Positions 2,376-59,682 of a stretch of DNA of 64,000 bases are shown here, in pieces. The notes beneath the pieces are model-generated. The model was given only the letters and a program-made list of their open reading frames with translations. It was not told the origin of the DNA and did not search any database. Each line of letters starts with the position of its first letter. Position 1 is the first letter of the stretch. Source of the DNA: Candidatus Thorarchaeota archaeon (GTDB lineage: Archaea > Asgardarchaeota > Thorarchaeia > Thorarchaeales > Thorarchaeaceae); contig CP070761.1 in NCBI GenBank assembly GCA_020348985.1, positions 883,613-947,612 of the forward strand, written 5' to 3'. The position numbers and the translations under genes were made by a program.

Positions 2376-3779
2376 CTAATCCTCTTCTTCGTCCTCTTCT
2401 TCACCAAGGCGTCTAGCACGGCCAAGTCGGCGGCTATCATCGACACGTAGTCGACGAGAATCAGGAGGCGCAATTGCATCGGATGGTTCTCTTTCACCTT
2501 TTGGCTCGTACTCCTCAGGAGCTTCAGAGGCCCTCAGGATTTCTTCATCCACTTCTCCTTCTTCGAAGACCTCACCCTCATCTCTTGCCCTCTCGACGAT
2601 TCGTTCAACTCGTTCTACGCGAAGATAGTAGATCATTGTGAACATGGCCATGAGTGGGAATGCGAGGAGTTTTGCGATGTCCCTAAACAAGAAAGTGGCG
2701 AAGTTGACTTCTGCTGTCCAGAATCCAGGGAAGAACCAGCCGCCAATGGCTGAGCCGGATCCTGAGGCAGCGATTATGCTGTCGACAAAGAAGAATCCAC
2801 TGGCCAGGAAGAATGTTATCAGAGGTCCTAGGTCTCTTGTTCGAGCTTTAGATTCCTCAACTTCTTCGGTTACGGTTCTTCCAATACCACTCATTGCATA
2901 AACCAGGAAGAACAAAGACATGGCAATGTCAACAGCTTCCATCGAGGGAGCCGATGATCTCCTCATCACATTGAACAAGAAGTAGCCCGAGTAAATGGAA
3001 ATGAACAAGGTTAGAAGACTGATATTGATTGCAGCTCCTTTGGTCGCATACCTGAAGTAGGAGAGAAGTGAAATCAGGGCAAAGAGCCCCAACAGCCCAA
3101 ATGCTCCTAACAGGAAGGGGAAGTGCAAAGAGACATTGTCCTGGAATTCTGGGAACACAGGGCCCAATAGAGCACTGATTCCGAACATATCTCCTGGGAT
3201 TACAACTAGGGCAACTACTGCTTCAGCTGCTATGATGCCAATCCCGATAATCAGTATGATGAAGGCGAGAATGCCTGTGCCAATACCTCCCTTCTTCGGT
3301 TCAGCAATTGTCGCAATCCGCAGACTAGTCCTTGATGATAGGTAGCCTTGGAATCCAATCCACCCCACCCAACAGAATGCTGCGAATATGAAGAGAATAG
3401 CTTCTCCGAGGAATATCGACATCCACACAGAAATTGCAAACGAGACCGCTAGCCAGGCCACACCCTTCATCTCAGTCACACGACCTCGGCCTCGCCTTGT
3501 AATCCAAAGCCGATCTAGCCTCAGAGCGAGCAGCAATGTCCCGATCATGAAGTAGATTGTGCCCGTCGCACCGAGATATGCGAAAGTGGTTATCAGAATC
3601 GTCTCAATCGTTGTTCCAATCACCCATGTTTGAGACAGTAGGAACGAAACGAAGAATGACAAGAAAACTGTCATGACAAAAATGATCAGATAGGCCACGT
3701 AGCGCCTCGTTTTGAAGAACACTTTCAGGCCTTCAACAATGCCAGAAAGAATAGGAATACCCAAAACATCATCCTCCAA
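2376..3779 (-). CDS. Polytopic membrane protein of unknown function with acidic C-terminal tail
   Basis: 467 aa, about 10 hydrophobic segments, E/D/R-rich tail. No family recognised. Confidence 0.8.
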   Translation of the reverse strand: MEDDVLGIPILSGIVEGLKVFFKTRRYVAYLIIFVMTVFLSFFVSFLLSQTWVIGTTIETILITTFAYLGATGTIYFMIGTLLLALRLDRLWITRRGRGRVTEMKGVAWLAVSFAISVWMSIFLGEAILFIFAAFCWVGWIGFQGYLSSRTSLRIATIAEPKKGGIGTGILAFIILIIGIGIIAAEAVVALVVIPGDMFGISALLGPVFPEFQDNVSLHFPFLLGAFGLLGLFALISLLSYFRYATKGAAINISLLTLFISIYSGYFLFNVMRRSSAPSMEAVDIAMSLFFLVYAMSGIGRTVTEEVEESKARTRDLGPLITFFLASGFFFVDSIIAASGSGSAIGGWFFPGFWTAEVNFATFLFRDIAKLLAFPLMAMFTMIYYLRVERVERIVERARDEGEVFEEGEVDEEILRASEAPEEYEPKGEREPSDAIAPPDSRRLRVDDSRRLGRARRLGEEEDEEED

Positions 3780-3957
3780 TTCTGCATCTCCGAAGTACTT
3801 GGTTCGATTTAAGCTTTGCAGAGGTTCTGCTCACGACAAGAAGATGGTCTTCAGAAACCCTTCTGCTCATGTGAACACTTCGGTCAAACGCAAACTGAAT
3901 TGAAAGCAATGGATTTCCACATAAGTTAGCTTTAATAGCGCTCAAAACGAATCCTTA

Positions 3958-4062
3958 GTGTGGCCGGGTGGCTGACAGGGTCTTGTTTTCGTAACATGCC
4001 CTCATTACAAACAACTCCCCCCCTCCTACCACAGCCTTGTCGGCACTGGCCACACCTCTTTT
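3958..4062 (+). ncRNA. Candidate structured small RNA
   Basis: 5' GTGTGGCCGGGTGGCTGACAGGG pairs with 3' CCTTGTCGGCACTGGCCACAC (about 21 bp, three G-U pairs, two bulges). There is an inner stem TTGTTT..GTAA/TTAC.AAACAA, a TTTAATA box at 3931-3937 and a CTCTTTT end. Confidence 0.6.
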
Positions 4063-4174
4063 CCGTTCAAATCCAAATACAGCATGTCGGCACATGAGTC
4101 CACGTTGACCGCATTCCTTTTCTATGGTTTTGCTCGGAATTTAAGGTGTGTGGAAACTTGGAGCGTGAGAGCGA

Positions 4175-4948
4175 ATGTCATCAGCGCAAGTTCAGATTGT
4201 CACCCAAGGACTGTCCAAGAATTTCGGGCCTATTGAAGCTTTGAAGAATCTCGATCTAGAGGTGAAAAAGGGGAGCACCTTCGGATTCCTCGGACCAAAT
4301 GGAGCGGGCAAGACAACTACAGTAAGAATACTCTCAGGACTGCTGAGGCCCAGCTCAGGAAATGCAGCTGTCTGTGGATTCGATGTCCTGACGCAGCAAG
4401 ATGAGATAAAGGGCGCAACAGGACTGCTCCCTGAGACACCGGGGCTCTACTCCAAACTATCTGCAGTCGAGTTTCTAGAGTTCATTGGTGCTCTCAACGA
4501 TCTGACTGGAGAGATTGTCAACAAGAGAATCGACCAACTGCTCGCTCTTCTTGGTCTTGAAGGACGTCAGAATGATCTTCTGGAAAGCTATAGCTCAGGG
4601 ATGAAGCAGAAGGTTCTGGTAGCTTCAACGATTCTCCACGATCCGACTCTGGTGTTTCTCGATGAACCAACATCAAGGTTGGATCCATCTGCAAGTGCCC
4701 TTGTAAAGGAAATCATCCTCGCTCTCGCCAAGGAGACCGAAACTACGTTCTTTATTTGCACTCACATGACAGACTTTGCTGAAGATGTCTGCGACATCAT
4801 AGGCATTCTAAACGAGGGCGTTCTGTCAGCCTTGGGTTCTCCCAACGAGATAATCGATCAAGTAGGTGCCAATGACCTTGAGGACGCCTACCTCAAGATA
4901 GTCGGTGGTGAAGTTGACCGCGAGAAGCTTCTCACTTGGAGGCAGTGA
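4175..4948 (+). CDS. ABC transporter ATP-binding protein (ABC-2/CcmA-like)
   Basis: Walker A GPNGAGKTT, signature YSSGMKQK, Walker B VFLDEPT, H-loop CTH. Confidence 0.95.
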   Translation: MSSAQVQIVTQGLSKNFGPIEALKNLDLEVKKGSTFGFLGPNGAGKTTTVRILSGLLRPSSGNAAVCGFDVLTQQDEIKGATGLLPETPGLYSKLSAVEFLEFIGALNDLTGEIVNKRIDQLLALLGLEGRQNDLLESYSSGMKQKVLVASTILHDPTLVFLDEPTSRLDPSASALVKEIILALAKETETTFFICTHMTDFAEDVCDIIGILNEGVLSALGSPNEIIDQVGANDLEDAYLKIVGGEVDREKLLTWRQ

Positions 4949-59607: not shown

Positions 59608-59682
59608 TGGAGCCGGCCTTGGGATTTGCACCCAAGTAAAATGGATTTGCAGTCCATCGCGTAGCTGCTCCGCCAGACCGGC
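59608..59682 (-). tRNA. tRNA-Cys(GCA), intronless, CCA encoded
   Basis: GCCGGTC/GGCCGGC acceptor, ATGGA-CTGCAAA-TCCAT anticodon arm, TTGGG-TGCAAAT-CCCAA T arm, U73 discriminator, and TTTAAA about 28 nt upstream. Confidence 0.93.

Follow-up and report, generated by a model that had tools for sequence, protein, structure and literature searches.

A family of structured small RNAs with a near-invariant, C-rich loop in the archaeal order Thorarchaeales

The sRNAs LhrC and RsaE of Firmicutes, and others of their type, carry exposed UCCC/CCCC motifs, which have been proposed or shown to pair with G-rich Shine-Dalgarno (SD) regions. In Alphaproteobacteria the cuckoo RNAs, or CcsR (RSs0680a-d, SmelC397), are multi-copy sRNAs that share an anti-SD-like loop motif, CCUCCUCCC, over variable stems (PMC4615179). 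Among archaea, the sRNA154 and sRNA41 of Methanosarcina mazei mask ribosome-binding sites (PMC5867862). The stretch of DNA analysed here (the window, 64,000 nt of a Candidatus Thorarchaeota genome) contains at positions 3958-4055 of its plus strand a stem-loop RNA gene, in which a 21-bp closing stem surrounds a small hairpin together with C-rich sequence that is left unpaired. Where cuckoo/CcsR RNAs have 2-4 adjacent hairpins, this copy has one closing stem with a multi-part loop; the motif there is CCCCCCCUCCUACC, and CCUCCUCCC is absent.

As judged from its sequence and from that of its relatives, the region 3958-4062 (+) is a gene in its own right and specifies a non-coding RNA of about 100-105 nt. 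A TATA box, TTTAATAG, is found at 3932-3939 (TTTAATA at 3932-3938), 20-22 nt before the stem, and with this spacing transcription would start at about G3958-G3960. The closing stem (P1), whose 5' strand occupies 3958-3981 and whose 3' strand occupies 4034-4055, was delimited by the minimum free energy (MFE) fold and by covariation in 24 sequences. In the MFE fold 3958-3967 and 3971-3981 are paired with 4034-4044 and 4046-4055 to give 21 bp, with a 3-nt bulge facing one unpaired base. The consensus stem of the family starts with GUGG, at 3960, and the window copy carries two additional pairs before it. The 5' strand is followed by J1 (3982-3990), a CU(A/U)G and a U-rich tract, CUUGUUUUC, both conserved in the alignments; the U-rich tract is a candidate site for an Sm-like protein. 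The inner hairpin of the window copy spans 3983-4014 in the MFE fold and includes P2 (3991-4008), a GUAA/UUAC helix with the invariant loop C-AUGCCCUCA, in which AUGCCCUC was the same in 24/24 sequences. The adjoining J2 (4013-4033) is a near-invariant unpaired C-rich segment, AACUCCCCCCCUCCUACCACA, which contains CCUCCU and within which CCCCCUCCUA did not vary in the alignment; the unpaired C-rich run of the window copy, CUCCCCCCCUCCUACCACA, extends over 4015-4033. The 3' tail, CUCUUUU (4056-4062), is likely an archaeal terminator. In most copies of the family the consensus stem is followed by ACC and then by U-rich sequence, while the copy of the sister family (L067) has no ACC. All these elements lie on the plus strand, and the TTTAATA, the stem of about 21 bp, the inner hairpin, the C-rich loop and the CTCTTTT end were each present where an earlier note on this DNA had placed them.

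BLASTN searches detected three further copies in the same genome (four in all), and matches in 24/24 genomes of the same family and in 0/16 genomes outside it. A covariance model (R1), to which the window copy aligned with 105.7 bits, matched 85/86 genomes of the family, representing 16/16 genera, with about 296 matches, or ~3.4 copies per genome; the sole genome in which it was missing is a 52%-complete bin. In a phylum-wide sample R1 matched 26/26 family genomes and the one genome of the sister family (1/1), where the match is intergenic and the core is retained. Searching ~122 genomes from 25 other Asgard families yielded nothing but one marginal match (in G188), which is located inside a 298-aa ORF and was taken as false. 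A pattern scan of the genomes of ~185,000 species returned mostly records of Thorarchaeota. Sampled pattern matches labelled Promethearchaeota, Hermodarchaeota or 'uncultured archaeon' passed the model, and those in bacteria and in one Methanobacteriota- and one Thaumarchaeota-labelled record failed it. Pattern matches from metagenomes (SMTZ, WOR and other sediments) fitted the model in 56 of 80 cases, and the two on viral contigs both failed. The RNA family, as delimited by these searches, is confined to Thorarchaeales and present in almost every Thorarchaeota genome searched.

Three subtypes were distinguished by the outer stem. Subtype A1, with the outer stem GUGGUCAG / CUGGCCAC (GUGG.../...CCAC), includes the window copy and lies divergent from a homologue of the membrane protein gene P0001 (see below) at no fewer than 30 loci; in four more genomes the two are 1.4-4 kb apart. 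The window copy has the outer stem of A1, a TATA 28-32 nt upstream, and is divergent from the P0001 gene. Two other copies of the same genome are of subtype A2 (GGUGG.../...CCACC), and one of these two has an OsmC gene beside it, an arrangement found at 12 or more loci. The remaining copy is of subtype B, with a short stem (GGCGG.../...CCGCC), and is located on the same strand as, and upstream of, a PhzF-like gene and a polyprenyl synthetase gene, which was seen at 22 loci or more. Each subtype is thus found at a syntenic locus of its own across genera, which indicates that the three are old paralogous genes under selection and not mobile repeats.

A comparison of the single-sequence fold of the window copy with shuffled sequences gave z = -2.75 on the plus strand and z = -3.1 on the minus strand. 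Since the minus strand folds about equally well and the z value is modest, a lone fold decides little, and it is the comparative data that carry the case beyond chance. Covariation of the stem was tested on an alignment of 24 copies, with 500 shuffles and slid partners as controls. On these copies RNAalifold predicted a 17-pair stem, 13 pairs of which showed compensatory (double) changes. Together with the family-wide conservation described above, this result disposes of the objection, anticipated in the earlier note, that the structure might not be conserved or covary in relatives. Of the P1 cells, 90.8% were paired, compared with 29-50% when the partners were slid, and 0/500 shuffles reached any of the observed measures. 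At the top of the stem AGGGC stays constant, and its 3' partner drifts through wobble changes. Compensatory support for P2 (GUAA/UUAC) was absent in the A-type copies of the 24-sequence alignment. The counterpart of P2 in B-type copies is a conserved helix, UUUCGU/ACGAAA, and rare variants, such as GUCAA/UUGAC, retain pairing. Covarying tertiary or pseudoknot pairs were not seen, because the core is invariant.

The orientation of the gene was read from the stem. Across the alignment about 57 cells of P1 are G-U, and as these would become A-C mismatches on the opposite strand, the transcript is most readily assigned to the plus strand. The earlier note had drawn the same strand preference from the G-U pairs of the stem, and in this it was right, but it counted three such pairs where the window copy has four (3966-4047, 3973-4042, 3978-4037 and 3981-4034). 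A minus-strand transcript was also rejected on the position of the promoter. We considered whether the locus might encode a small ORF (AUG CCC UCA ...) and excluded it: the core has frame-breaking indels, of lengths not divisible by three, and in many copies a UAA follows after three codons. The antisense of the core (window 3990-4033, minus strand) contains a very strong SD sequence, GGAGGGGGGGAG, and later AUGUAA, a start followed by a stop; this was judged incidental.

The spacing of the promoter was counted in 71 distinct elements that share the outer stem type of the window copy. A TT[AT]4 (CTTAATAGG-type) box begins 28-32 nt upstream of the first stem G in 56 of them, and 52 of the boxes begin at -29 or -30. 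With the TATA at such a fixed distance, transcription of the A-type copies would be expected to start at the stem itself. In B-type copies the TATA is 75-85 nt upstream of the stem, which would result in a leader of ~50 nt, often with GGAGG or GUAGGAG, antisense to the C-rich loop. The B copy of the same genome, at G000:C1:2538437-2538620 (-), equivalent to L087:6438-6620 (-), has its TATA, GTATATAAG, ~80 nt before the stem, a ~50-nt leader with two small hairpins, and is located ~215 nt upstream of the PhzF-like gene. The TATA box at fixed spacing, the covarying stem and the U-rich 3' flank argue for an independent structured transcript of the plus strand, as had been proposed. The ABC ATPase gene that follows the window copy (4175-4948, PF00005) has a TTTAAG only ~30 nt before its ATG (window 4140-4177, plus strand). 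If this TTTAAG is a TATA box, the mRNA of the ABC ATPase would have almost no leader and would start at or after the GGAGCG at 4160-4165. The ABC ATPase gene is not a conserved neighbour of A1, whereas the divergent upstream P0001 gene is.

Several dispersed copies per genome, a few of them truncated or interrupted (L010, L026, L029, L030), could suggest a mobile or selfish repeat of the MITE/REP type, whose terminal inverted repeats would mimic a stem. This origin is hardly credible, and we consider it largely refuted: each subtype occupies a single orthologous site in the different genera, the stems change by covariation, G-U pairs included, instead of keeping a fixed inverted-repeat sequence, the promoter stands at constant spacing, no transposase is near and the pattern matches on viral contigs fail the model. 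The earlier note had itself named dispersed repeats as a finding that would speak against an RNA gene; the genome has only four copies, at syntenic loci and with covarying stems. No transposase, reverse transcriptase or recombinase was found beside any of these four.

Some copies depart from the common form. Truncated, interrupted or part-duplicated ones were found at L009, L010, L026, L029, L030 and L032 (in the relatives G009, G010, G016 and G024); L009 has a second AUGCCCUC fragment ~30 nt upstream, and in L026 the core is broken after CUCCC. From their sequence, these look like decaying or rearranged paralogues. Two A2-type copies, L083:2001-2125 (-) and L084:2001-2125 (+) (genomes G095 and G096), have an additional hairpin, CCCGC-AUAU-CGCGGG, between AUGCCCUCA and the C-run, which indicates that this joint tolerates insertions. 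In G004 a 44-nt fragment of the RNA is found beside the P0001 orthologue (C21:53262-53305) and a full A1-type copy on another contig (C9:53761-53872), an arrangement that suggests relocation or replacement of the RNA gene in that lineage.

The RNA was also compared with catalogued classes. Rfam searches with the whole window at gathering thresholds, with the 401 nt from 3780 to 4180 at E values up to 10, and with the type-B locus returned nothing relevant, so that the RNA matches no catalogued family. The best row of the 401-nt search was a snoRNA, SNORD46, with 14.5 bits compared with a gathering score of 40 (E = 2.7), in line with the earlier view that this is not a C/D box RNA. ARAGORN found no tRNA or tmRNA at the site (the only tRNA of the window is tRNA-Cys, at 59608-59682), nor did the Rfam tRNA model, and the exclusion of a tRNA therefore stands. 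In a literature search no published description of a regulatory or structural small RNA family in Thorarchaeota was found. A miRNA-like or Argonaute guide derived from the ~22-bp stem was considered as well and dismissed, as a search of the genome detected no Piwi domain and the invariant part of the RNA is the loop, not the stem.

P1 encloses a loop of ~55 nt. Across the order the stems vary, and the near-invariant part of the RNA is a core of ~50 nt, which consists of CUAG, a U-tract, AUGCCCUCA and CUCCCCCC(C)UCCUACCAC. The window copy has AUGCCCUC at 3996-4003 and then CCCCCUCCUA(C)C at 4018-4030. The predicted probability of being unpaired was 0.96 for the C-run of the window copy (mean 0.92 over 118 distinct members) and 0.83 for GCCCUC (mean likewise 0.83 over the 118). 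The 3' end of the 16S rRNA of the same genome is GGAUCACCUCCU, which shares CCUCCU with J2, and the CCUCCU of the loop can thus be regarded as a copy of the anti-SD. Both parts of the original description of the loop, exposed and anti-SD-like, agree with these values. As to the genome itself, the assembly comprises 3.16 Mb in 132 contigs joined by runs of 100 N; of the 16S rRNA only the last ~105 nt are present, at a contig edge (G000:C1:1651227-1651332), 23S rRNA does not occur within ~10 kb after it, and the Rfam SSU model did not find 16S rRNA in the genome. Two other resemblances were attributed to chance. UCGUAACA is similar to the h44/h45 region of 16S rRNA, a similarity that B-type and sister-family copies lack. 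The 5' stem of the window copy resembles the 5' end of Alu/7SL RNA; this likeness falls within the variable stem, and other copies do not show it.

The reading that we tentatively prefer, while giving it somewhat less than an even chance, is that of a trans-acting sibling sRNA, whose CCUCC-containing loops would pair with G-rich ribosome-binding sites. The RNA would be transcribed from the first G of the stem, 20-22 nt past its own TATA, and would end in the U-tract. The 21-bp stem, variable yet always paired, would clamp the ends and present the constant loop, the single-stranded C-rich motifs of which could pair with the G-rich SD regions of mRNAs. Such pairing might occlude ribosome binding or alter the stability of the mRNA, possibly with the help of an Sm-like protein attached to the U-tract; the genome has three genes with an LSM domain. 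GGAGG is 6.4-fold enriched at -16 to -7 before the long ORFs of the genome. This enrichment shows that SD-led initiation is used there, and it bears out the earlier statement that ribosome-binding sites of this kind are in use.

The search for partners of the loop gave less. Start-codon windows paired slightly better with J2, with 25 sites at or below -20 kcal/mol compared with 10 and 16 in the controls. Apart from the sRNA genes, the genome has no complementary site of at least 12 nt, and sites complementary over at least 10 nt were not enriched (46 seen compared with ~100 expected under a uniform model). The best predicted mRNA target (-29.5 kcal/mol) is the gene of an Rce1-like protease, of which 24 related genomes contain no orthologue. 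Pairing with the 16S and 23S rRNAs of relatives and with 21 tRNAs of the same genome was no better than with shuffled controls. Thus, for the mRNA-pairing function put forward in the earlier note, a conserved complementary target was looked for among genome sites, start regions, rRNAs and tRNAs and was not found. Two further observations weigh against an anti-SD sRNA: pairing of the loop with ordinary GGAGG(U) sites would be no stronger than that of the ribosome's own sequence, and ~50 nt that are invariant throughout the order exceed what a seed needs and are in keeping with protein or tertiary constraints.

Because of this excess of invariant sequence, we rank a protein-binding RNA second, after the anti-SD sRNA. 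The RNA would then be a scaffold or decoy of a ribonucleoprotein (RNP), its invariant loop would be the docking surface and the stem would merely close the loop; partners might be an Sm-like ring, a protein of the KH or poly(C)-binding kind, or a factor whose normal ligand is the C-rich 3' end of 16S rRNA. A core that hardly changes over 16 genera and in the sister family, combined with a drifting stem, is the pattern expected from protein or tertiary contacts, and the absence of an RNA target among mRNAs, rRNAs and tRNAs, the constancy of AGGGC while its 3' partner wobbles, and the LSM genes of the genome are all compatible with it. We nevertheless hold this explanation to be rather unlikely, as none of the copies has a candidate protein linked to it, the membrane protein, OsmC and PhzF encoded next to them are not RNA-binding proteins, and neither a Ro/TROVE nor a Piwi gene was found in the genome. 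A more specific version, which we regard as a clear outsider, is that the invariant 50-nt loop is the docking surface of an Asgard-specific RNP and not an mRNA seed. The RNA might then act as a decoy of the C-rich 3' end of 16S rRNA that titrates a ribosome-biogenesis or initiation factor, or be the RNA subunit of a particle, with the A1 gene co-inherited with the SERINC-like protein described below.

Variable stems about invariant joining segments, in several copies, are also reminiscent of small ribozyme classes, and the ~50-nt leader of B-type copies would need to be removed exactly at the stem. The core could therefore be a catalytic or ligand-binding fold, such as a self-cleaving ribozyme or a trans-acting aptamer. 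We consider this very improbable, since no Rfam ribozyme or riboswitch matched even at E = 10, covarying tertiary or pseudoknot pairs were not found, and A-type copies begin at the stem, where cleavage is unneeded.

The conserved divergent neighbour of A1, P0001 (2376-3764, minus strand), is a polytopic membrane protein with about ten predicted transmembrane helices and an acidic tail. Its listed ORF extends to 3779; alignments of homologues place the start near 3764 (probably TTG). There were 198 homologues with at least 54% identity, nearly all in records of Candidatus Thorarchaeota, and tblastn located homologues beside A1 copies at 30 loci or more; the protein is part of the genomic context of A1, and a functional link between the two is only putative. 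No sequence matches to P0001 were found in Pfam, NCBIfam or the PDB. Its AlphaFold (AF2) model (pLDDT 75.5) aligned with human SERINC3 (7rug_A) with a VIA Z of 17.5 over 296/315 residues at an rmsd of 6.3 Å, the next best chain scoring 10.3; in a Foldseek search with the model two SERINC structures were top by probability, with weak E-values. To our knowledge, SERINC is regarded as eukaryotic. The model suggests that P0001 may be an Asgard SERINC-like protein, which is a lead and not demonstrated homology.

The constancy of this neighbourhood raises the question whether A1 is functionally tied to the divergent SERINC-like gene, through co-regulated back-to-back promoters or by acting on its strong (A/U)AGGGAGG ribosome-binding site. 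At 26 distinct loci the two genes remain divergent and are separated by 120-320 nt, and in four other genomes they are within 4 kb of each other; the RNA and P0001 are both restricted to Thorarchaeota, and P0001 orthologues retain an AGGGAGG SD that can pair with CCUCCU. However, this complementarity amounts to ~6 bp only and is no better than that of 16S rRNA, one or two genes intervene in several lineages, the full copy of G004 is on a separate contig, and the A2 and B paralogues have the same core and unrelated neighbours. Plain inherited synteny can explain the linkage, and we consider a functional tie improbable.

Essentially universal presence in the genomes of the order that were searched, at least three syntenic paralogues and an unchanged core of ~50 nt above stems that have fully turned over mark this family as part of the core RNA biology of Thorarchaeota. 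The family also supplies a clean covariance model for the annotation of Thorarchaeota genomes. If the RNA is an anti-SD riboregulator, it would show that the prokaryotes most closely related to eukaryotes control SD-led translation by sibling sRNAs; as part of an RNP, it would point to a conserved protein partner.

The earlier note had likened the RNA to Y RNA. Y RNA/YrlA is indeed similar in size, in the long stem that pairs the ends, in the pyrimidine-rich internal loop, in the U-rich 3' end and in having few paralogues per genome. The pattern of conservation is reversed, however: Y RNA conserves its stem and varies in its loop. The 401-nt Rfam search gave no Y_RNA (RF00019) or YrlA row even at E = 10, and a TROVE/Ro60 (PF05731) gene was not found in the genome by a search that detected the controls in Deinococcus and Bacteroides, although with a genome that is 86% complete its absence is not proven. 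On these three counts the analogy was abandoned.

The remaining systems resemble the Thorarchaeal RNA in what it is proposed to do. LhrC occurs, as this RNA does, in sibling copies; LhrC and RsaE are bacterial, have another architecture and no homology to the Thorarchaeal RNA, and their targets are known from experiments. Like the Thorarchaeal RNA, sRNA154 and sRNA41 are archaeal intergenic sRNAs with anti-RBS loops proposed to mask the RBSs of their targets. They are not homologous to it, their targets and regulation have experimental support whereas for the Thorarchaeal RNA both are hypothetical, and they are single-copy RNAs of one genus whereas the latter forms an order-wide paralogous family. 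With cuckoo/CcsR it shares sibling copies, compensatory change in the stems, a conserved anti-SD-like C-rich loop and, for some members, a conserved genomic context. The cuckoo/CcsR RNAs are bacterial, with neither sequence nor structural homology to it, and consist of 2-4 tandem hairpins with CCUCCUCCC in each loop, in contrast to one long stem and a 55-nt loop with two different C-rich motifs. The invariant part of cuckoo RNAs is 9 nt, compared with ~50 nt here; cuckoo RNAs bind Hfq, for which the Thorarchaeal counterpart, encoded by the LSM genes, is at most a candidate. In the preferred reading the Thorarchaeal RNA would work in the manner of cuckoo/CcsR and of the RBS-masking archaeal sRNAs; it belongs to neither.
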